DNA from: an uncultured Alphaproteobacteria bacterium
Lineage (GTDB): Bacteria; Pseudomonadota; Alphaproteobacteria; UBA2966
NCBI GenBank assembly: GCA_958295725.1
Contig: OY282368.1
Coordinates: 1,384,001-1,448,000 of the forward strand
Direction: 5' to 3'
DNA: 64,000 nucleotides
Shown here: one piece after another, positions 3,276 to 26,248 of the stretch
Numbering within the stretch: position 1 is the stretch's first letter
How the letters are laid out: the number at the start of each line of letters is the position of its first letter
The notes under the pieces: generated by a model
Database searches by the model: none
The model's input: only the letters and a program-made list of their open reading frames with translations
Told to the model about the DNA's origin: nothing
Translations under genes and position numbers: made by a program

Positions 3276-3385
3276 TTTGATACATCATCAGGGAGGAGTT
3301 GTTTGACAGCGCGCGGGCTTGTCGCCAGAATGGGCGCTTCCATGAGGTTTGGCCGTGTTTTCACCGAGGTTTGGTTATGTTTTCA

Positions 3386-3398
3386 CCCCCCCCCCCCC
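3386..3398. repeat. Homopolymeric C13 tract upstream of the autotransporter gene
   Basis: Direct count: 13 consecutive C at 3386-3398. The next ATG with a signal peptide is at 3441. Confidence 0.95.
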
Positions 3399-3440
3399 GC
3401 AAATAGTCCTCCCTCCTTCGCCGGCCGCGGCGCGGCGGTG

Positions 3441-6400
3441 ATGCGCCGGGTCCGGTCCGCGTCCGCCGGGCGGCTCGTCCTGGCGGGGCTTGTACTGGCC
3501 GCGCTGGCCTTGGGCCCGGTGCCGGCCTCGGCTCAGAACGCGTTCAGCTTCACGTTCACGGGCCAGAGTTCGAGCGTGGAGCCGAACACCGTCCTCACCA
3601 GCGACGCGGTCACGGTGGCGGGCGCGACCGGCAGCGTCACCGCGGAGGTCGCCATCTGCCGGTTCGAGGCGCCCGTCACCCTCGCGCGGACGACGAGCAC
3701 CGGCTGCACGCTGGTGAAGAACGACACGGACGTCACCGGTTCGAGCACGACCGTCGTCAACGGCGACAAGGTCAAGATCAAGATCACGTCGAACAGCGCG
3801 TTCAGCGGAAAGGCGCAGGTCCTGGTCTATATCGGCACGAAAAGCTCTTGGTTCGTGGTCATAACGCGGTTGGCGGACACCAGGCCGGACTCGTACAGCT
3901 TCACCACCCAGACGGGCGTGGAGCCGAACACCGTCGTCACCAGCAACGAGGTCACGGTGGCGGGAGTCGAGGCTCCGTCACCCGTGCGGGCCAAGTTCTG
4001 CCGGTTCGTGTCATCCAGCGGGGTGCGGTCGACGACGGGCGCCACCTGCACGCTGGTGAAGCGCCTCGCGGCCCCTGGTTCGAGCGCGGACGACGTCACC
4101 GGTTCGAGAACGACCGTCGTCAACGGCGACAAGATCGCGGTCAAGGTCAAGGCGAACAGCGCGTTCAGCGGAAGGGCGCAGGTGAACGTCACCATCGGCA
4201 CGGGCTTTGCCTGGTTCACGGTCGCGACGCGGGCGCAGGACACCATGCCGGACTCGTTCAGCTTCACCGCCCAGACGGGCGCGGAGCCCGGCGCCTCCGT
4301 CACCAGCAACGAGGTCACGGTGGCGGGAGTCGAGGGATCCGTCACCGTGCGGTTCAGCTCCTGCCGGTTCTTGTCGCTCAGCGGGGTGCGGTCGACGACG
4401 GGCGCCGCCTGCACGCTGGTGAAGCGCCCCGCGGCCTCTGGTTCGAGCGCGACCGACGTCGGTTCGAGCACGACCGTCGTCAACGGCGACAAGATCGCGG
4501 TCAAGGTCAAGGCGAACGGCCAGAACCTCGGAAAAGCGCAGGTGAACGTCACCATCGGCACGGGCTATGCCTGGTTCCAGGTCACGACGCGGGCGCAGGA
4601 CACCATGCCGGACTCGTTCAGCTTCACCGCCCAGACGGGCGTGGAGCCCGGCGCCTCCGTCACCAGCAACGAGGTCACGGTGGCGGGAGTCGAGGGCTCC
4701 GTCACCGTGCAGTTCAGCTCCTGCCGGTTCGTGGCGCCGGACGGCGTGACGCGGTCGACGACGGGCGCCGCCTGCACGCTGGTGAAGAACGGCACGGACG
4801 TCACCGGTGCGAGCACGACCGTCGTCAACGGCGACAGGATCAAGGTCAAGGTCAAGGCGAACGGCCAGAACCTCGGAAAAGCGCTGGTGAAAGTCACCAT
4901 CGGCACGGGCTCCGTCTGGTTCACGGTCACGACGCGGGCGGTGGACACCACGCCGGACGCCTTCAGCTTCACGGACCCGGCGGCCGCGGAGCCCGGCGTC
5001 GTCGTCACCAGCAACGAGGTCACGGTGGCGGGAGTCGAGGGCTCCGCCACCGCGCGGCTCTCCTTGTGCCAGTTCGTGGCGCCGGACGGCGTGGCGCGGA
5101 CGACGAGCACCGGCTGCACGCTGGTGAAGAACGGCATGGACGTCACCGGTCTGAGCACGACCGTCGCCAACGGCGACAGGGTCGCGGTCAAGGTCGAGGC
5201 GAACGGCGATTTCGGCGGGGCGGCGGAGGTGAATGTCCATGTCGGCACGGGCTCCGTCCTGTTCACGGCCAGGACGCGCCCGCCGGGCGTGACGCTGACG
5301 CGCGGCGGCGGGCGCCCGCTCGGCCCGGGCTTCAGTATCGCGAAAGGGACAAGGGCGATCTACGGGGTGGCGCTGGAGGCGGCGCCAGCGAGTTCGGCGA
5401 CGGTCACCATCTCCGTGAGCTCCGTGAGGCGGGGCGACAAGCCCGTCACCGTCGGGCCGTCGAGCCTGACCTTCGACGCGACGAACTGGAACACGCCGCG
5501 GAACGTGGGGGTGTGGGCGACGGCGGAGACGGACGGCTATGCCGGCACCGCCGTGGCGACGCTGGGCCACGAGGTGACGGGGCTGGTCGGGGACAGCACG
5601 AGGGCGCGGATGGACGTGACGGTGACGGTGTTCGGCGACACCCGGATCAGGGCACCGGCGGCGGGGACGGTGGCGTCCTATCTCATCGGGTTGCCGGTGA
5701 GGTGGCCCGTAACGGTGGAGACGCTGACCGGCGTTCCCCCGGGGATTGAGCTCGACTTTCCGGCGATGCTCTCGGGCAGCATCGCGCTCACCATCGCGCC
5801 GGCGCCCGACAACCTGCCGCCGTCCGGGGCCAGGTTCGCGGTCGTGGACGGCACGGCGGTGGATATCTCCGTGGCGGACATGGCGTCCGTGCCGCCCGGC
5901 GGGGTGGAGGTCTGCCTTCCGGCGACGCAAGACCTGACGTTGCTGCACTACGCGGGCGGCGCCTGGACGGCGGTGCCGGGTTCGGCCTGGGACGCGACGC
6001 GGATGCTGGTCTGCGCCGGCGGGGTGACGTCGTTCTCGCCCTTCGCTCTGGGCTACGCGGACAGGAGCATCGAGTTCGCGGGGACGGTCTCCAACCAGGT
6101 CTACACGGTGGACGAGGCGATTGAGCCGCTGGTGCTGCCTCTGGTGAAGGAGGGGACGGGAGACCTGCCGATAACCTACGCGCTCACGCCGGCGCCGGCG
6201 GAGTCGCTGCCGCCGGGGCTGACGTTCGACGCGGCGACGCGGACGTTGTCGGGGACGCCGACGGAGGTGTTCTCTGCGACGGAGTATAGCTGGACGGCGC
6301 GGGACACGGACGGGTCGGAGAAGACGCTGACGTTCACCATCGCCGTCGCGATTGATACGCCCATGCTCTCTATCGACAGTCCGAACGTCACGGAGGGGAC

Positions 6401-8078
6401 GGGGACCAGGGGCGGGACCCTGCGCTTCCTGGTCTCCTTGAGCGCCGCAAGCGGCAACCAGGTGACGGTGGGCTACGCGGACGCGGGCACCGGCACCGCC
6501 ACCTCGGGCACCGACTACACGGCGATTCCCGCCGGGACGCTCACCTTCGCGGCGGGGACGACCAGCCAGCCCATCGCCGTGACGGTGACCGGCGACGCGA
6601 CGGACGAGCCGGACGAGACGGTGGTGGTCCGGTTGAGCGGCCCGGTGAACGCGACCCTCGACGCGAGCGAGGGGACCGGGACGATTGACGACGACGATCC
6701 GGCCCTGCGGGTGCGCCTGAAGGCGATCAACGAGGCGGTGTTGCCGGAGTTGTCCTGGGCTCTGTGGGGGAGCGCGCTGGACGCGGTGACGGGGCGTCTG
6801 GAGTCTCCCGATGCGGTGGCGCCCACGGTGGCCGATGGGCTGGAGACGGCGGCGGGGTTCGCGCGGGCCAACGAGAGCGCCCTGGAGGAAGGCGACGTGT
6901 CGTGGAAGGAGCTTCTGGGGGGCGAGTCCTTCGCCTTCGGCCTGGCCGGAGACGGCGAGGGCGGTCCGGGCGCCGGCGGCGTCGTGGCGTGGGGTTCGGG
7001 CGACTGGCGGCGCCTGTCGCGGGACGAGGATGCGCTGGACTGGTCGGGGGATGCGTTCTCGGCCCATGTGGGCGTGGACGCGGCGCTGCGGCCGGACCTT
7101 CGGGGCGGCCTGGCGGCGTCGTGGTTCTCGAGCGACGTGGACTACACGGACCGGAGGCAGGGCGAAGCGGCGGTGAAGGGTTCGCACGAGAGCCGGATGA
7201 CGGCGTTGACGCCCTACCTGGGCTGGGCCGCGGGCGACGGGGCGCGGCTGTGGGGGGCGGCCGGTTACGGCTGGGGCGAGATCGAGATCGTGGACGCGGA
7301 GGCGCAGAAAGCGGACAGCCGGTTCCTGGCGGGGGCCGCGGGCGGGTCCGTGCCGGTGTGGTCGCGAGGCCCCGCGACTCTGGAGGCGAAGGGATCGGCC
7401 GAGGCGACGCGCTGGCGGGTGAAGGACAACGGCGATGCGATCGCCGGCGTGACGGCGGAGACGCAACGTCTGCGTCTGGCGGCGGAGGGGAGCCGGGCCC
7501 ATGCGCTACCGGATGGCGCGTCCCTGACGCCGACGCTGGAAGCGGGCGTGCGCTGGGACGGCGGCGACGGCGCGACGGGGGCGGGCCTGGAGGCCGGCGG
7601 CGGTCTGTCCTGGACGGACCCGGCGCGGGGCCTGACGGTGGAGGCGGAGGGCCGCGCGCTTCTGGTCCACAACGAAGACGTCGAGGAGTGGGGCGTGTCG
7701 GGGTCGATGCGTCTGACCCCGGACGCGGACGGGTTCGGCCTGTCGTTCCGGTTGCTGCCGAGCTGGGGCGCGTCCGGGAGCGGCGTGGCGCGGCTGTGGG
7801 ACGAGGGCGTGGCGGCGGCGCGCCCAGCGGACGGCGGCGGCGGCAACGAGGCGCGCCTGGAGACGGAACTGGGCTACGGGCTGCCCGCGTTCGGCGGCGC
7901 CGGAGTGACAACCCCCTACGCCGGGTTCGGTCTGGCGCAAGGCGGCGAGCGCGACACGCGCGCCGGCGTCCGCCTCGGCCTGGGCGCCGGGTTCGACCTG
8001 GGCATCGAGGCCGAACGCAGGGAAAACGCCGCCGACACCGGGCACGGCATCGGGCTCGACCTGCGCATCAGGTGGTAG
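3441..8078 (+). CDS. Type Va autotransporter/adhesin-like surface protein (signal peptide, 5 tandem repeats, Ig-like and Calx-beta-like modules, C-terminal beta-barrel)
   Basis: Signal peptide MRRVRSASAGRLVLAGLVLAALALGPVPASA/QN. Putative-Ig-type segment LPPGLTFDAATRTLSGTPTE. Calx-beta-like segment GTDYTAIPAGTLTFAAGTTSQPIAVTVTGDATDEPDETVVVRLS. Gly/Trp/Ala-rich C-terminal ~350 aa end in ...GIGLDLRIRW, an aromatic terminal residue typical of OM beta-barrels. Confidence 0.85.
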   Translation: MRRVRSASAGRLVLAGLVLAALALGPVPASAQNAFSFTFTGQSSSVEPNTVLTSDAVTVAGATGSVTAEVAICRFEAPVTLARTTSTGCTLVKNDTDVTGSSTTVVNGDKVKIKITSNSAFSGKAQVLVYIGTKSSWFVVITRLADTRPDSYSFTTQTGVEPNTVVTSNEVTVAGVEAPSPVRAKFCRFVSSSGVRSTTGATCTLVKRLAAPGSSADDVTGSRTTVVNGDKIAVKVKANSAFSGRAQVNVTIGTGFAWFTVATRAQDTMPDSFSFTAQTGAEPGASVTSNEVTVAGVEGSVTVRFSSCRFLSLSGVRSTTGAACTLVKRPAASGSSATDVGSSTTVVNGDKIAVKVKANGQNLGKAQVNVTIGTGYAWFQVTTRAQDTMPDSFSFTAQTGVEPGASVTSNEVTVAGVEGSVTVQFSSCRFVAPDGVTRSTTGAACTLVKNGTDVTGASTTVVNGDRIKVKVKANGQNLGKALVKVTIGTGSVWFTVTTRAVDTTPDAFSFTDPAAAEPGVVVTSNEVTVAGVEGSATARLSLCQFVAPDGVARTTSTGCTLVKNGMDVTGLSTTVANGDRVAVKVEANGDFGGAAEVNVHVGTGSVLFTARTRPPGVTLTRGGGRPLGPGFSIAKGTRAIYGVALEAAPASSATVTISVSSVRRGDKPVTVGPSSLTFDATNWNTPRNVGVWATAETDGYAGTAVATLGHEVTGLVGDSTRARMDVTVTVFGDTRIRAPAAGTVASYLIGLPVRWPVTVETLTGVPPGIELDFPAMLSGSIALTIAPAPDNLPPSGARFAVVDGTAVDISVADMASVPPGGVEVCLPATQDLTLLHYAGGAWTAVPGSAWDATRMLVCAGGVTSFSPFALGYADRSIEFAGTVSNQVYTVDEAIEPLVLPLVKEGTGDLPITYALTPAPAESLPPGLTFDAATRTLSGTPTEVFSATEYSWTARDTDGSEKTLTFTIAVAIDTPMLSIDSPNVTEGTGTRGGTLRFLVSLSAASGNQVTVGYADAGTGTATSGTDYTAIPAGTLTFAAGTTSQPIAVTVTGDATDEPDETVVVRLSGPVNATLDASEGTGTIDDDDPALRVRLKAINEAVLPELSWALWGSALDAVTGRLESPDAVAPTVADGLETAAGFARANESALEEGDVSWKELLGGESFAFGLAGDGEGGPGAGGVVAWGSGDWRRLSRDEDALDWSGDAFSAHVGVDAALRPDLRGGLAASWFSSDVDYTDRRQGEAAVKGSHESRMTALTPYLGWAAGDGARLWGAAGYGWGEIEIVDAEAQKADSRFLAGAAGGSVPVWSRGPATLEAKGSAEATRWRVKDNGDAIAGVTAETQRLRLAAEGSRAHALPDGASLTPTLEAGVRWDGGDGATGAGLEAGGGLSWTDPARGLTVEAEGRALLVHNEDVEEWGVSGSMRLTPDADGFGLSFRLLPSWGASGSGVARLWDEGVAAARPADGGGGNEARLETELGYGLPAFGGAGVTTPYAGFGLAQGGERDTRAGVRLGLGAGFDLGIEAERRENAADTGHGIGLDLRIRW
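3534..5285 (+). repeat. Five tandem in-frame coding repeats (~350-360 bp, ~117 aa each) inside the autotransporter passenger
   Basis: Repeated blocks D(S/A)FSFT..QTG.EP...VTSNEVTVAGVEGS...C(R/Q)F......C TLVK.....VVNGD.I.VKV.AN.....A.V.VTIGTG..WF.V.TRA.DT.P. Off-frame ORFs starting at 4207 and 4567 begin identically (360-bp register). Confidence 0.9.
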
Positions 8079-8355
8079 AGCGTTCGGTTCGCGTCCAGGA
8101 AGACCGCGGCGCGGCGGTGCTCAACCCCTGGCGCCAGGACGCCGCGCCAACGGCGAACGACATCGCCTGTAATCTGCCGCGGCAGGCCGAAGGTCCGCAT
8201 GGGGGTCTTCCTTCACGCTGCTTGTTCAACACCAACAGCGTCGGAGATCCCCACCCCTCCTTCAAGGACCGTCGAACTTGGCGCGTCGGTCGCGTCGTGG
8301 TATCGTCGCGGAGTCGTGGATGACGCGACTCACGTTCCGGGGAGAGGATGCAGCG

Positions 8356-13109: not shown

Positions 13110-13123
<14 letters not shown>

Positions 13124-13811
13124 CAACGTCGACTGCTACTACGGCGCCGTCCGGGTCCTGAAGGGCGTGTCCCTCGGCGTCGGCGCGGGCGAGATCGTCG
13201 GTTTGCTGGGTCGGAACGGTGCCGGCAAGACCACCGTGCTGCGCACCGTCATGGGGCAGATCAAGCCGCGCGCGGGCCGCATCGAGATGGATGGAAACGA
13301 GCTGACCGCCCTCGCGCCGCACGACGTCGCCAGGCTCGGCATCGCCTACGTCCCCCAGGGGCGGAGGCTGTTCGCCGGGCTCAGCGTCGAGGAGAACCTG
13401 CGGATGGGCCTGCTGGTCCGGGGGAGCGGGGGGGACACCCTCGACCGGGTGCTCGGCCTGTTCCCCGTCCTGACGGAGCGTATGCGCCAGCGCGCCGGAA
13501 CGCTGAGCGGCGGCGAGCAGCAGATGCTGGCGACCGCCCGCGCCCTGTGCCTCGATCCGCGGCTCCTCCTGCTCGACGAACCGAGCGAAGGGCTGATGCC
13601 GACGGTCGTGGCGACGTTGCTGGACACCGTCGCCGGTCTGAAGGACCGCGGCGTCGGCGTCCTGCTCGTCGAGCAGAAGGTGGAGGCCGCCTTGCAGATC
13701 GCCGATCGCATCGTCTTCATCGAGAACGGGGCGGTCGCGGGCGAGGCAACGCCGGAAGAGCTCGACGAGGATCCGCAGCCGCTTCACCGGTACGTCGGCA
13801 TCCGTCGTTAG
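13110..13811 (+). CDS. ABC transporter ATP-binding protein (LivF-like)
   Basis: Walker A GRNGAGKTT, signature LSGGEQQMLA, Walker B LLLLDEPSEGL. Confidence 0.85.
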
Positions 13812-13874
13812 AACCCGGCCCGAAACCCTCGCGGTTTCCATCCTGTCCGCCGTGTACCCCCTCCCGGCCTTCCC

Positions 13875-14651
13875 CTGAGGCTCAATTTCCTCACCGGGAA
13901 GCACGGAGAGACGCCCGCCAACCAGACCATGTCCTTCCTGCGCTCGGTCTACCGCAGACCCTGCGTCGATCACGACGGCTTGCGCAATCCCGTCGAGCAA
14001 TGGCTGGCCGGCGGCGGGCGCTACCATCGCAAGAAGCGCCGCAGGATATCGGCGCCGGCCGAGGTGCTGCCGCGCTGGCGCGCCGGCATCAAGGCGGAAG
14101 TGCGCAACCCGGTGCACCGCGACCTGCTGATGTTCGGGCTCTACACCGGGATGCGCCGGGGCGAGATCATGCCGCTGCGCTGGGAGCGGGTGAACATGGA
14201 GGCGGGTCTCTTCAGGGTCGAGGAAACCAAGACCGGGGAGCCGCTGGAGTTGCCGGTCACGCGGCAACTCGCCGCGGTCCTCGCGCGGCGCCGGGCGCAT
14301 GGCGAGGCGATGCCGGCGAACCTGCGCGCCTGGGTGTTTCCGTCGCCTTCGAGCGCGTCGGGCCACGTCGAGGAGCTTCAATCCCTCTACGCCCGCATCG
14401 AGCGGGCGGGCGGCGCGAGGTTCTGGTTCCATGCCTTGCGCAACTGCTTCATCACGGTGGCTGAGCGGGAGTTGATGCTGCCGCGCTCTCTGACCAAGCG
14501 GCTGGTCAACCATGCCCGGCCCGGCGACGTAACCGAGGGCTACGCCGCGGACTGGACGGTGGGGCAGCTCCGCGAGCCGGCGCAGAGGATCGCGGACCGG
14601 ATCGACATGCTGATGAACGCGGACACTCCCGCCGATCAAGCCGCGGCGTGA
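13875..14651 (+). pseudogene. Tyrosine recombinase (phage-type integrase), 5'-truncated: catalytic domain present, N-terminal arm/core-binding region missing
   Basis: Catalytic-domain motifs LYTGMRRGEI (Arg), FHALRNCF (H-x-x-R) and TEGY (Tyr). Homology (LNFLTGKHGETPANQT) runs upstream of the first ATG and ends at the livF-like stop. Confidence 0.7.
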
Positions 14652-15027
14652 AGGGACCGCGCCCACGCATTCCCAAGCGCCTCTCGGGTCTGCCCGGCGG
14701 CATCGGCTCACTGTGGGCCGCGTCGTCGCCACGCGATTCAGGCACGGCCGCTCCATTCGCTCGTGGCCGCCCCCACGACGGCAAGCTTGTCCCGTGCCTG
14801 ATCCGCGTGTAAGGGTAATGGTCCTTCCAATTGCCGGCCTACCTCCATGCGCTGGTGCAGAACGCGGATGACGAAAAGGCCGCCGCCAGCTAGGTTTGCC
14901 ACACTCAAGCGATCTGGAAGCCACAGGGCGGTAATCAGAACGACATCGGCTACGCTTCGGATGAATTCCAAAATCACATCTCCGAGAATCCCCTTTACGG
15001 TGAGACGCTCTCGGAAAAGGCCGATGC

Positions 15028-18686
<3,659 letters not shown>

Positions 18687-19261
18687 GGTCACGCAAGGCG
18701 ACAACAAATGACTCAGACATTCCACTGTGTACCGAGTACACACAAAAAACCTAGAGAACTGTCTAAGAACGCGATTTTCAATTCCAGGTAGAATGATTCC
18801 CGTAGGCGACGACGGGAAACGCGGCCGCCGGGACGGCGGCTGGAAAATACTGTCGACCGGGAAAGATCCGGCGACCCGCCCGGATGTCGGCACAAGGTCG
18901 CTGCAAACCCTGCGCGAACATGGCGGCCGACGCATTCGCCCAACGACGAGGGCGGATTTCCGGCCAGCGTCACAGGAAAACGTTGCCGCGTCAACGTTCG
19001 TCCGCGGCATCGCTCTCTATCAAACGCCCGGCGGCCAACACGGGTCCGATCACAAGTCACGGAGCACTTCCGATCACCCACTGGCACGGCCGAGCACGGA
19101 AGCTACCTGCGTCGAAAGCGCTCGTTTCTCAACCTGCCCGGAGAAACCGTGCCTCGGAGCGAGTGAGGCAGCTGCGCCATAAGCGACTGCTATGGAAGAG
19201 AGGACCGACAGACCGGTTTCGGTTGCCGCCCCGTTATACGGTTTTTGGTTCTCAGAATCAC
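18687..19261. other. 575-bp non-coding spacer, mostly GC-rich and hairpin-rich, between the convergent methyltransferase and orphan genes
   Basis: All overlapping ORFs are Arg/Pro-rich with no recognisable family. Multiple short GC hairpins (GCCGCC-GGGAC-GGCGGC, CGTTG-CCGCGT-CAACG, GTTTCTC-N10-GAGAAAC, GCCTC-N9-GAGGC). From ~18790, GC is clearly higher than in the flanking genes. Confidence 0.5.
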
Positions 19262-20128
19262 TCAAGGTCCATGATATCGGTTGCGGATCGACGGCGGAGG
19301 AGAAGCCGGAAGCAGAGAATTTTCGGAGCCCTCCCAGAGGGGCCGGAACCACAGCGGCGAATCCTGGGGTTTTTCCGGGTCCCGCATCCGGCTTAAAAGC
19401 ACGATCTTACTCCACAGCTCGTGGCCTTCGGCTTCCCGAACATGCTTCAGGAGAGCCGCCTCGCAGCCTTGGGACAGTATATCCAGTGCGTACGTCACTT
19501 CGTCATCAAGGACGAGCCACCAATGATCGTGCTTTTTCGCCCGTTCGCTTTTGCCCACGTTATCGGCCTTTTCGCGTACAACAGAGGCGACTCTCCGGCC
19601 CACCTCGTCACCTTCGATGATTTGTCCTGAGTCCGTGCCCCACCACGCGAAGGTCGGTTTTTTCTTTGCTATCCCCAACACTATCAATGTGATTCCGCGC
19701 CCACCAATTTCATCTTGTGGACTGATTTGAAATTCTTGATATCTCCCCTCATGCATTCTTGCCGACAAAACAGCCGCTCTCACCTTCCCTTTGAGGCGCT
19801 CGAAACAAGCCTTCTTTGGGAGCGGATCCCGTTCATCATATTCACAAATCCAGTGGAATCCTGGAACTATCTTCTCTTCGGATTCGATCTTTCGGAGGAG
19901 TGCTTCGAGCTTCTTTTCGAATGCCGTCTCTTTCCTCCTGCCCCAACCACTTTCGTTAGGGAGTAAGCACACTTCGACGGCAATTTTCTTTCCTCGATAT
20001 TCACCTATAAAATCCGGTGGGCCGATCCCATGTCCTCGACCTACGAAACGTATTTCTGTCATTCCGATCTGCTTCAACCATATCATTGCAGGGATTTCGC
20101 TATCTTTGGGAGCGTCTTGCCGGTTCAT
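19262..20128 (-). CDS. Hypothetical protein with N-terminal PD-(D/E)xK-like motif (putative nuclease fold)
   Basis: 288-aa ORF with low-GC codon usage over most of its length. The GPPDFIGEYRGKKIAVEVCLL segment resembles the IDF...LALEV motif of the helicase N-terminus. The 3' ~100 nt are GC-rich, so the tail may be non-native. Confidence 0.55.
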   Translation of the reverse strand: MNRQDAPKDSEIPAMIWLKQIGMTEIRFVGRGHGIGPPDFIGEYRGKKIAVEVCLLPNESGWGRRKETAFEKKLEALLRKIESEEKIVPGFHWICEYDERDPLPKKACFERLKGKVRAAVLSARMHEGRYQEFQISPQDEIGGRGITLIVLGIAKKKPTFAWWGTDSGQIIEGDEVGRRVASVVREKADNVGKSERAKKHDHWWLVLDDEVTYALDILSQGCEAALLKHVREAEGHELWSKIVLLSRMRDPEKPQDSPLWFRPLWEGSENSLLPASPPPSIRNRYHGP

Positions 20129-20230
20129 TTTCTTTGGCTCAATTAGCGTTATGTATGCTTGAGCTGCCCATCGCGGCGGCGAGGCAGGCTCGCGGGGAGA
20201 CCTCGCTGCCCAATCGCGAGGAGAACGATC

Positions 20231-20761
20231 ATGACTTTCTTTCCTTCACTCCCCGGGGATGCGGGCCTCGCGGAAATACAGTCGCCTTACGCCGACATCT
20301 GGCGTATCTGGGGAGAGTTCAGCCAGACGCTGATGCGCGGCCCGGGTCCGCTGTCGGTCGCCGACCGGGAGCTGGTCGCCGCCTACGTTTCCGGCCTGAA
20401 CGAATGCGAATACTGCTACAGGGACCACGCCATGGCCGCCGAGGCGTTCGGCATCGACCCGGACGTGTTCGCGAACCTCCTGGACGATGTCGATGCTTCC
20501 GCGGTCGACGAGAAGATGAAGCCGCTCCTGCGGTTCGTCCGCAAGCTCACCCTGACGCCGTCAAGGATGGTCCAGGCGGACGCCGACGCGGTCTACGACG
20601 CCGGTTGGGAGGAGGGAGCGCTGCATTTCGCGATCGCCGTCTGCGGCCGCTACAACTTCATCAACCGCCTCGTCCTGGGTCACGGCGTCGAGTACACGGA
20701 AGCGCACACCGAGACATGGAAGAACGAGCAGGGCATGGCGTACCGGATCCTGCCGGAGTGA
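20231..20761 (+). CDS. Carboxymuconolactone decarboxylase (AhpD-like) family protein
   Basis: LSVADRELVAAYVSGLNECEYCYRDH (C-x-x-C-x-x-x-H) motif. GGAGAA RBS before ATG 20231. Confidence 0.75.
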   Translation: MTFFPSLPGDAGLAEIQSPYADIWRIWGEFSQTLMRGPGPLSVADRELVAAYVSGLNECEYCYRDHAMAAEAFGIDPDVFANLLDDVDASAVDEKMKPLLRFVRKLTLTPSRMVQADADAVYDAGWEEGALHFAIAVCGRYNFINRLVLGHGVEYTEAHTETWKNEQGMAYRILPE

Positions 20762-24956: not shown

Positions 24957-25047
24957 GGGCTATCCCCGCGTGTGCGGGGGAACCCAGACCTGCGGTCGTG
25001 GCACGCGACGGTGTTCGACGCTATCCCCGCGTGTGCGGGGGAACCTA
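24957..25047 (-). CRISPR. Orphan mini-array: two type I-E-like repeats (identical 26-nt core) with one ~32-nt spacer
   Basis: Cores at 24959-24984 and 25020-25045 are identical. Minus strand reads GGTTCCCCCGCACACGCGGGGATAGC. The 61-bp period fits 29+32. The form matches the I-E consensus (G)GTTCCCCGC-N4-GCGGGGAT.... Confidence 0.5.
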
Positions 25048-25379
25048 GGCTCAGGACCTATAACCAAAAGATGACGGTAGCGGCGATGCAGATGGCGCTG
25101 AAGAAGGTGTGGGCGCATTGGTCGTATCGTGTGGCGATACGCCGCCAGTCCTTGATTCTGCCGAACATGCGCTCGATAAGATTGCGCCGCTTGTAGAGCT
25201 CGGCGTCGTAAGCGACCCGAGGCACGCCGCGAACCTTGTTGGGCAGCAGAGGCTGGATACGGGCGAACCGGGCGTCGGATAGCCAGAAGTGGTGGTCGGA
25301 CATGGTAGCCTCCCCTACATCTAGAGGCTTTGAACCACATCCCACCTCAATACTCAAGTCTGGTTATAGGTCCTGAACC
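25048..25379 (-). mobile_element. Internally deleted IS5-family (IS427/IS1031-like) element, MITE-like (332 bp)
   Basis: Terminal inverted repeats GGCTCAGGACCTATAACC (25048-25065) and GGTTATAGGTCCTGAACC (25362-25379) match 17/18. The internal ORF joins the transposase N-terminus (MSDHHFWLSDARFARIQPLLP) in frame to its C-terminus (YDAELYKRRNLIERMFGRIKDWRRIATRYD). Confidence 0.8.
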
Positions 25380-25490
25380 AGGACAGACACTTGGCGGCAG
25401 ATCCTTCCTGTGTCATGATTGGCTCGTTGTGAGGTGTCTGGGGGGGGGAATCCCGGCGTCTGGGAAAAAGATTGTGGAGGCACTTGGAGC

Positions 25491-25865
25491 ATGGGGCGGA
25501 AGGGCTTCGTTGCAACGGCATGGACCAATGGTCAACAGCGCGAGACAGGGGCGGGATATGGCCTGAAGGTCGAGATCGCCGACCGTGACACGTTCTTCGA
25601 CAAGAGCTGGAAAACCGTAAAGTTGAATCTTGTCGGAACGGTGAACAGCCGTATGACAGAGGTCAACATTGAAAAATGCTCGTTCTGGAATGACATATGT
25701 CGGGAATTGATCAGTAAGGATATCGGTCGGTGGTTCATAGACAATAAATTCGTGTTCATAGACAACGAATTCGTGCCGTGGCCCAAGGGTTGCCCACCAC
25801 GATTTCGGTTTGTCCCTACGAATGAACGTGAGTTCGAAGTTAAAAGAGAACCTGCTTATGCGTGA
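25491..25865 (+). CDS. Hypothetical protein (124 aa), low GC
   Basis: GGAGG about 11 nt before ATG 25491. AT-richer codon usage than the backbone. No family recognised. Confidence 0.45.
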   Translation: MGRKGFVATAWTNGQQRETGAGYGLKVEIADRDTFFDKSWKTVKLNLVGTVNSRMTEVNIEKCSFWNDICRELISKDIGRWFIDNKFVFIDNEFVPWPKGCPPRFRFVPTNEREFEVKREPAYA

Positions 25866-25868
25866 AAT

Positions 25869-26180
25869 TCATCCGGCGATGAGGGTGCGGTAGGGGATGG
25901 GTTGTGTGCGGGCGGCGCTATGGAGGAAGCGGGGGATTATGGTTTGGAGTTGGTAGCGGCGGTTGCAGCGCCAAGCGAAACTGGCGAGATGGCGTTCGGC
26001 GTGGTCGGGTCCGAGTTTGCGGTAGGTCCCGATGATTGCGCTCTTGATACTTCCGAGCATGGTGTTGACCCCCTTGAAGAGCGCCATGCGCACGCTGGCG
26101 CGCCCGGAGCCTGTGTGGATCGAGCGATGGTCATGGCCGGCATGGCCGAGGGCGGTATGCGTATTCCGTACCGGCGTCAT
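25869..26180 (-). pseudogene. IS1595-family transposase, C-terminal ~100-codon fragment
   Basis: GVNTMLGSIKSAIIGTYRKLGPDHAERHLASFAWRCNRRYQL...PIPYRTLIAG parallels the C-terminus of the intact IS1595-family transposase at 44395-45351. Confidence 0.65.
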
Positions 26181-26248
26181 GCGCCATCGTGCGGTGACGG
26201 AACCCACCGTGCCCAGCACGGACGATGCCGTACTCGGACATGCCGCGG

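Follow-up and report, generated by a model that had tools for sequence, protein, structure and literature searches.

What is a block of low guanine-plus-cytosine (GC) DNA doing between two ordinary transporter gene clusters of an uncultured alphaproteobacterium, and could its genes make up a defence system? We asked this of a 64,000-nucleotide (nt) stretch of contig OY282368.1 (the window; positions are counted from its first letter), in which about 5.5 kb (14.8–20.2 kb) lie between a liv operon and a cluster of AhpD-like and TRAP transporter genes. An initial annotation, made from the sequence without database searches, had interpreted the locus as a horizontally acquired defence islet whose integration module has decayed, and our analysis supports that interpretation. 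The block is foreign DNA and, as a genomic island, it is ordinary in kind. We consider it likely that this foreign block carries an ATP-dependent two-gene restriction-modification cassette and a separate nuclease-like orphan gene, and that it is accompanied by a dead integrase. The locus reads as follows from left to right.

13110–13811, plus strand: livF-like ABC ATPase, intact, the last backbone gene at the left (Pfam ABC_tran, E 2e-32)
13878–14651, plus strand: tyrosine integrase relic, catalytic half only (Pfam PF00589; first in-frame ATG at 13929)
14652–15027, no strand: left transition zone, GC falling from 0.72 to 0.50
15028–17703, plus strand: candidate restriction subunit of 891 amino acids (aa) (Pfam ResIII, Helicase_C, HNH_repeat)
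17700–18686, plus strand: beta-class N6-adenine DNA methyltransferase of 328 aa, its start overlapping the upstream stop by 4 nt (ATGA)
18687–19261 (575 nt), no strand: non-coding spacer between convergent genes, AT-rich at 18700–18800 and with a core of 0.64–0.69 GC at 18800–19150
19262–20128, minus strand: single gene coding for 288 aa, whose rare family has no name and shows a PD-(D/E)XK-like signature (unassigned in Pfam, NCBIfam and PADLOC)
20129–20230, no strand: right junction, where GC returns to the backbone level; no repeat matching the left border
20231–20761, plus strand: AhpD-like gene (carboxymuconolactone decarboxylase family), the first right-hand backbone gene (Pfam CMD, NCBIfam TIGR01926)

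The limits of the block are set by composition. In 500-nt windows, GC was 0.64–0.71 up to 14.75 kb, 0.49–0.61 at 14.75–20.25 kb and 0.65–0.67 beyond, which bears out the low-GC block of about 14.7–20.15 kb that had been described against a mid-60s backbone. At 100-nt resolution, the left transition fell at 14.75–14.95 kb and the right one at 20.10–20.30 kb. The lowest single 100-nt windows in the block reached 0.40, so that the hand-counted values of 37% and 52% in the earlier description are consistent with the computed profile. A stretch of 0.64–0.69 GC at 18.80–19.15 kb splits the block in two. Among 1-kb bins across the whole window, only 25–26 kb, the site of an insertion sequence (IS) remnant, matched the block in low GC. 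GC at third codon positions (GC3) was 0.88–0.94 in the transporter genes on both sides (0.92 in the livF-like gene) and 0.86 in the AhpD-like gene, compared with 0.65 for the helicase, 0.59 for the methyltransferase and 0.55 for the orphan. The integrase fragment lies outside the low-GC block, and its GC3 of 0.90 is backbone-like. When about 125 2-kb windows were ranked by tetranucleotide distance, 8 of the 15 most deviant lay in 14.5–20.5 kb and the remaining 7 in an autotransporter gene at 3.5–8.5 kb. The discontinuity is thus present in both the sliding GC profile and the tetranucleotide profile, and these breaks in GC, GC3 and tetranucleotide use speak for a foreign origin of the block. 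On its left, the livF-like gene ends at 13811, as had been stated, and its homologues align to residues 1–231 of 233; on its right, backbone genes resume at about 20.2 kb, again as described, with the AhpD-like gene at 20231 and then the gene for DctP of the TRAP transporter. Pfam and NCBIfam matches together with codon periodicity also confirmed the content that had been read from the block, namely a nuclease-helicase, a methyltransferase, a non-coding spacer and an orphan.

The nuclease-helicase and methyltransferase genes overlap, are both full length and together form the cassette (15028–18686). The 891-aa protein fits its family's length range of 886–897 aa and has thousands of relatives, of which the best 120 are full length (~890 aa) and 59–84% identical. 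A genome scan with the helicase-nuclease hit bacteria from the Hyphomicrobiales, Chloroflexota, Cyanobacteria, Gemmatimonadota, Acidobacteriota, Chlorobiaceae, Bacteroidota, Bdellovibrionota, Spirochaetia, Bacillota and Latescibacterota, and also a Doudnabacteria genome (candidate phyla radiation) and a Woesearchaeota archaeon. At nearly every locus long enough to judge, and in about 45 fetched loci in all, the helicase gene was adjacent to a gene for a close relative of the window's methyltransferase; the two abut or overlap in the window, in L081–L083, in L205–L207 and in L209. Some copies reside in conjugative or integrative elements with a coupling protein, relaxase, ArdA or integrase, and one has a transposase-like neighbourhood. 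Three copies, those of the window, of L081 and of L331 (an IMG/VR contig), are bare inserts at unrelated loci in high-GC genomes. Their GC is about 0.52–0.62 against 0.63–0.74 in the surroundings, and nucleotide similarity among them (77–80%) is limited to the two genes (window 15014/15025 to 18609/18643), starting about 14 nt upstream of the start codon and ending near the methyltransferase stop. Such bare low-GC inserts at unrelated loci are strong evidence for horizontal acquisition and, judged by the limits of their homology, show that the mobile unit is the gene pair itself. The earlier proposal of horizontal acquisition therefore stands on the compositional break, on the recurrence of the cassette as a low-GC insert elsewhere and on its protein identities of 38–84% across phyla.

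The cassette was found labelled only as "DEAD/DEAH box helicase", and none of the PADLOC, Pfam and NCBIfam libraries used labels it as a restriction system. A literature search in a limited library returned no description of it as a helicase partner of RsrI-type methyltransferases or by two Pfam domain names. A plasmid collection contained no full-length relative of the 891-aa protein, the relatives there being confined to the motor domain and annotated as DUF3427 proteins or DEAD/DEAH helicases. Apparently, then, this is a restriction-modification cassette of undescribed build.

The methyltransferase is an end-to-end orthologue of M.RsrI (PDB 1eg2, E 1.9e-128, residues 2–302 on 1–302), with about two-thirds identity as read from the alignment. 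It carries DPPY and FFAGS motifs in beta-class order and matches Pfam N6_N4_Mtase (E 1.7e-52) and the PADLOC MTase_II model PDLC03327 (443 bits, E 1e-133). M.RsrI is the N6-adenine methyltransferase for GAATTC of Rhodobacter sphaeroides. The cassette thus resembles the RsrI/EcoRI-type Type II systems in its methyltransferase, whose clade also stands beside EcoRI-family nucleases. It differs from them in its nuclease: we found no EcoRI-family gene in the window, and the partner is an 891-aa protein with an ATP motor rather than a 277-aa homodimeric cutter. This partner is built as follows.

aa 1–140 (nt 15028–15447), plus strand: restriction-fold nuclease, matching REase_MTES_1575 (PF18741) below threshold
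aa 140–490, plus strand: superfamily 2 (SF2) DExH motor, by comparison with SauUSI (7clg)
aa 543–590 (nt 16654–16797), plus strand: linker with HNH_repeat (Pfam)
aa 586–891 (nt 16783–17700), plus strand: C-terminal domain, a putative DNA reader (AlphaFold model)

PF18741 matched three distant members of the family with E values from 2e-4 to 3e-5. All 23 sequences compared retain D55, E68 (part of an E-x-N/D-G motif) and Y74-H75 in the nuclease domain. The Walker A, DEVHH, TATP and QQLGRGLR motifs of the motor are intact, and the motifs of both nuclease and motor are invariant in 23 diverse members. That Walker A and DEVHH are both intact points to an enzyme that depends on ATP and that would then not belong to classic Type II. 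The closest solved relative is SauUSI, a Type IV enzyme of Staphylococcus aureus (7clg, E 6e-67), in which SauUSI residues 210–641 align with residues 129–562 of the window protein. This match covers the motor only, that is, the ATPase and first coupler helices of SauUSI in the domain map of PMC7913695, and the match to the PADLOC model mREase_IV (E 1.7e-68) is likewise limited to the motor. Like SauUSI, the 891-aa protein combines a nuclease, an SF2 DExH motor, a helical linker and a C-terminal reader in one chain, and this likeness makes ATP-driven translocation before cutting likely (PMC7913695). The two differ at both ends. The nuclease is PD-(D/E)XK MTES_1575-like rather than of the phospholipase D (PLD) type, and the reader is a new helical domain in place of SRA/DUF3427; neither Pfam nor the structure search of the C-terminal model gave a PLD nuclease, DUF3427 or SRA-like match in the 891-aa protein. 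They also differ in that the 891-aa gene is paired with a methyltransferase, so that its product should attack unmodified and not modified DNA. The AlphaFold model of aa 586–891 is mostly helical (predicted local distance difference test score, pLDDT, 90.5; predicted template-modelling score, pTM, 0.90). Searched against the PDB, it had no match below E 0.9, and the weak matches were mostly winged-helix DNA binders, including the BpuJI recognition domain.

The function of this domain is best approached through the relatives of the methyltransferase, a scan for which revealed four neighbourhood states in the clade. In the first, the nuclease-helicase protein stands beside the methyltransferase. 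In the second (L299–L301 and L326), a ~550-aa NgoFVII-type PLD nuclease (PF09565, above threshold) is fused to the C-terminal domain without a helicase; the fusion gene lies directly upstream of the methyltransferase gene, and its C-terminal domain (~300 aa) is 37–42% identical to that of the 891-aa protein. The third state, found at eight loci, has an EcoRI-family nuclease (PF02963, E 1e-76 to 1e-96) and methyltransferases that are 54–59% identical. In the fourth there is no nuclease, and the methyltransferase occupies a conserved Bradyrhizobium-type locus. The C-terminal domain hence accompanies the methyltransferase whichever nuclease is attached, as expected of a module that reads the protected sequence. 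Through the PLD relatives, the cassette shares the modular nuclease-plus-reader logic of BfiI/NgoFVII-type PLD enzymes, from which the 891-aa protein differs by its nuclease fold and by the helicase motor between nuclease and reader. The PLD-fusion proteins themselves probably form a separate, uncharacterised family of Type II restriction enzymes.

Two loci link the helicase genes to EcoRI-family genes. L102 (757–6450) has an EcoRI-family gene in addition to the helicase and methyltransferase genes, and one methyltransferase must therefore protect against both nucleases. L098 (9941–13941) contains the helicase and EcoRI-family genes, and the methyltransferase is missing; in its reader, the most conserved motif of the family, SYHYPQGTH, is degenerate, the region reading NYIFPPSVHLGH. 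On the basis of the M.RsrI orthology, the pairing of the clade with EcoRI-family nucleases and these two loci, the predicted specificity of the cassette is probably GAATTC, with the proviso that specificity can shift at about two-thirds identity to M.RsrI. Within the window, GAATTC sites at 14963 (65 nt upstream of the helicase start) and 18644 (in the last 45 nt of the methyltransferase gene) bracket the cassette, which may be chance or a methylation-sensitive control point. Separately, the orphan M.RsrI-like methyltransferases of the fourth state (L303–L323, from Bradyrhizobium and related Alphaproteobacteria) are 54–62% identical to that of the window. Judged by eye, they are flanked at their conserved chromosomal position by an RND efflux pump gene on one side and by a Crp/FNR-like regulator and an AsmA-like gene on the other. 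Such a setting points to a domesticated, possibly regulatory methyltransferase.

Given the recurrence of the C-terminal domain on a PLD nuclease and the EcoRI-family partners of the methyltransferase clade, the cassette is most likely an ATP-dependent restriction-modification system. In the mechanism that we infer, the methyltransferase would mark the host's own sites, probably at the second adenine of GAATTC, and the 891-aa partner would be a single-chain restriction enzyme built like SauUSI. By analogy with SauUSI, the C-terminal domain would bind an unmethylated site and activate the SF2 motor, the motor would use ATP to translocate along the DNA, and the N-terminal PD-(D/E)XK-type nuclease would cut, probably after dimerisation or collision. 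We propose more tentatively, leaning slightly to the side of doubt, that the cassette represents an unrecognised ATP-driven class in which a restriction-fold nuclease, a SauUSI-type motor and a helical reader of unmethylated GAATTC are held in check by an M.RsrI-type methyltransferase. In that class the reader would be portable across at least two nuclease chassis (PLD alone, and PD-(D/E)XK with a motor), all serving the EcoRI-associated methyltransferase clade.

The third component of the locus is the tyrosine recombinase between the livF-like gene and the block. The initial annotation had its homology begin immediately after livF and had it lacking its N-terminal third. A truncated recombinase with the catalytic part retained does follow livF; its homology starts at 13878, 67 nt past the livF stop, and the absent part amounts to residues 1–162 of 419, or 39%. 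The relic corresponds to residues 163–419 of P0121, a 419-aa enzyme with an arm-type DNA-binding domain (PF13356) and PF00589, and in BLASTP 239 of 247 residues (97%) were identical, with query residue 23 on subject residue 163. P0121 is not encoded in the window, but its recorded contig is as long (3,524,415 bp) as the one recorded for the window's own proteins, and we therefore regard it as an intact paralogue at another place in this genome. Full-length relatives carry both PF13356 and PF00589, whereas the relic carries PF00589 only, having lost the arm-binding domain and most of the core-binding domain. Its nucleotide homology to other copies stops at the stop codon (93% identity to L126, ending at 14652). 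Att-like direct repeats, which the initial annotation had named as something to look for at both borders, did not appear: a repeat search of 13.0–21.5 kb gave matches of chance length only, none of them pairing the borders. No tRNA or tmRNA was found in the 64-kb window. Because the integrase is truncated, no att repeat links the borders and no tRNA lies in the window, we conclude, in agreement with the earlier reading of a decayed integration module, that the module adjoining the block is dead. The islet would be unable to mobilise itself, and the intact P0121 could act on it only if suitable sites existed.

A genome scan for the integrase family recovered 79 loci, 68–95% identical and several copies per genome, in assemblies of Alphaproteobacteria, Binatia, Thermodesulfobacteriota, Gammaproteobacteria and Vicinamibacteria. 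The hosts are apparently often sponge-associated, to go by Spongia, Poriferihabitaceae and sponge sample codes in the record titles. None of the 40 family loci checked had a tRNA gene beside the integrase. Between paralogues within a genome, nucleotide similarity mostly extends from the start codon, or from up to ~250 nt upstream of it, to near the stop codon. The locus resembles islands with P4-type tyrosine integrases in having foreign defence-related cargo directly downstream of an integrase gene of the PF13356 plus PF00589 family. It differs from them in that the integrase is truncated, tRNA target and direct repeats are absent, and many metagenome-assembled genomes carry the family in several copies. 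One Binatia assembly has six copies (L137, L143, L144 and L148–L150) that share about 2.8–2.9 kb at 97.5% identity; after this stretch come the same modules, rearranged in order and orientation. A seventh copy, L161, matches at about 85% identity, and only across the integrase gene.

For the solitary orphan gene, searching 5.8 billion indexed proteins gave 6 relatives at E ≤ 0.01, an exhaustive profile search gave 278 cluster representatives, and we found no Pfam family on any relative. All of the 60 diverse members compared have E11, D39, K187 and W204, and nearly all have P37, P38, E52 and D209. The AlphaFold model, of medium confidence (pLDDT 68), has an alpha-beta-beta-beta-alpha-beta N-terminal core bearing E11, D39 and E52. 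All of its Foldseek matches were non-significant; among them Hjc (Holliday-junction resolvases), XisH, RecU and VRR_NUC recur. The orphan is probably a stand-alone PD-(D/E)XK-type nuclease. The three retrievable contexts of its relatives contain ArdC and polyvalent proteins, a Type IIG enzyme, a Type I system, HEPN_AbiU2 and serine recombinases. The defence content attributed to the block is supported by these defence and mobile-element neighbourhoods and by the M.RsrI orthologue with its nuclease-motor-reader partner. In L180, a fragmentary member of the orphan family is found 4 kb downstream of an integrase from the same family as the relic. The size of the orphan (288 aa) and its convergent orientation to the methyltransferase gene raised the idea of a cognate EcoRI/RsrI-type nuclease; this was rejected, since nothing in the window matches PF02963 or is EcoRI-like and the relatives do not lie beside M.RsrI-like genes. 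The idea that the orphan family has a conserved small partner gene at its upstream side was rejected as well, the small open reading frames (ORFs) in L123–L125 being mutually unrelated.

Several points weigh against the picture of one foreign block with a GAATTC restriction system and its dead integrase. The match of the nuclease domain to PF18741 stays below the Pfam threshold. The reader domain has no significant structural relative, and its DNA binding is deduced from context and from weak winged-helix matches. GAATTC is not depleted in the window, with 13 sites where base composition predicts about 6. No other cassette locus contains the orphan, and a GC-rich spacer lies between it and the cassette. 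The integrase has a GC3 of 0.90 against 0.55–0.65 for the cargo, and there are copies of the cassette, in L331 and on conjugative elements, that have no integrase.

The compositional points bear on how the locus was assembled. Because of the 0.64–0.69 GC spacer and the absence of the orphan from all other cassette loci, the block is probably not one acquisition and represents at least two. A real though minority possibility is that the whole locus is a patchwork at a recombination-prone spot, with the integrase as an older, ameliorated or resident layer and the cassette and orphan arriving later and separately, for instance by conjugative DNA and illegitimate or homology-assisted recombination. 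The backbone-like composition of the integrase and its intact 97%-identical paralogue mean that it and the cargo may come from separate layers, and its family is multi-copy in related metagenome-assembled genomes. The occurrence of the cassette without an integrase elsewhere, as a bare two-gene unit whose homology ends at its own limits, means that the integrase may not have been the vehicle. The absence of the orphan from all other cassette loci and the GC-rich spacer between the two fit a patchwork too, as does a second scrap of a mobile element 5 kb away, at 25–26 kb. Against it stands L081, where a relic of the same integrase family (residues 148–252, with in-frame stops, GC 0.60) is followed directly by the helicase gene, which points the same way. 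Nucleotide identity between the window and L081 is 76% for the integrase relic and 80% for the cassette. Chance would hardly produce such an arrangement with such similar divergence, unless the slots for cargo in these islands begin just behind the integrase gene. The orphan-family relative downstream of the integrase in L180 argues in the same direction. In the history that we favour, the integrase family may mark a slot, just downstream of its gene, in which cargo collects; the cassette would have arrived at that slot, the orphan would have been added separately, and at some point a deletion would have removed the 5′ part of the integrase along with whatever lay between it and livF. No close relative of the host was found, the best livF matches being 62% identical among species-representative genomes and 58% among metagenome contigs, and exact-protein look-ups of livF, DctP and P0121 found nothing on record.

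With regard to the enzyme, we think it unlikely that the cassette is a Type III-like hetero-oligomer in which the methyltransferase recognises the sequence and recruits the helicase-nuclease, leaving the C-terminal domain as a docking or regulatory module. Type III systems also pair a beta-class PF01555 methyltransferase with an SF2 helicase-nuclease, the translational coupling of the two genes suggests matched stoichiometry, and the C-terminal domain lacks a proven DNA-binding fold. The methyltransferase is nevertheless a compact M.RsrI-type Type II enzyme (MTase_II E 1e-133 vs MTase_III E 5e-14), and its clade also partners EcoRI-type nucleases, for which no complex is needed. Moreover, the nuclease is N-terminal, the gene order is the reverse of mod-res, and the PADLOC models of the Type III Res subunit (REase_III) match weakly (E 3e-5 or worse). 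Quite improbable is a modification-dependent Type IV enzyme with a methyltransferase that acts as an epigenetic regulator or marks DNA to be attacked, as phage growth limitation does. Type IV SauUSI-type enzymes are indeed the best PADLOC and PDB matches, and conserved orphan methyltransferases of the clade exist in Bradyrhizobium. The SauUSI-type matches, however, cover the motor only, with PLD nuclease and SRA/DUF3427 reader both replaced (domain map in PMC7913695), the tight and often overlapping linkage to one methyltransferase clade in about 45 loci fits toxin-antidote pairing, the C-terminal domain on a PLD nuclease beside the same methyltransferase is a classic Type II layout, and methyltransferase loss in L098 coincides with decay of the reader motif.

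The 575-nt spacer (18687–19261) had no codon-position GC periodicity. Neither it nor 14652–15027 showed similarity to the fetched loci or to the rest of the window, an Rfam match or an ORF with a Pfam match, and promoter and terminator scans gave about as many hits as in shuffled sequence. An 18-nt inverted repeat (14730–14747 and 14792–14809; 89% complementary, 44-nt loop) sits exactly at the onset of the GC fall. It is overlapped by an unverified 79-aa ORF on the minus strand (14738–14977), for which we found no homologue; its codon-position GC of 0.71/0.38/0.59 is island-like.

Elsewhere in the window, the giant autotransporter-like gene at 3303–8078 (Calx-beta, He_PIG and autotransporter beta domain; GC 0.71–0.76) shares with the island the strongest tetranucleotide deviation. 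A piece of it of about 1.4 kb (6708–8120) is 88% identical to a gene of OY282363.1 located 4.5 kb upstream of another same-family integrase (L174). The second low-GC patch (25000–26200; GC 0.53) has a strong positive GC skew and contains a 99-aa fragment of a DDE transposase (PF13586) at 25058–25357 on the minus strand and an unassigned 148-aa ORF at 25419–25865. A further 304 nt (25853–26156) are 89% identical to L126 6986–7288, 3 kb upstream of a 95%-identical integrase in the alphaproteobacterial OY282363.1.

The value of the island lies in its cargo. The cassette is highly conserved and is found in bacteria and at least one archaeon as well as on conjugative elements, and the orphan is a candidate for a further stand-alone family of defence nucleases. 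If the 891-aa protein is an ATP-dependent GAATTC enzyme, it would add a third and a fourth nuclease solution for one of the best-known restriction sites. It would also provide a natural case of interchangeable nucleases served by one methyltransferase clade, and a new, compact domain for reading DNA whose model is of high confidence and for which no related structure has been solved.

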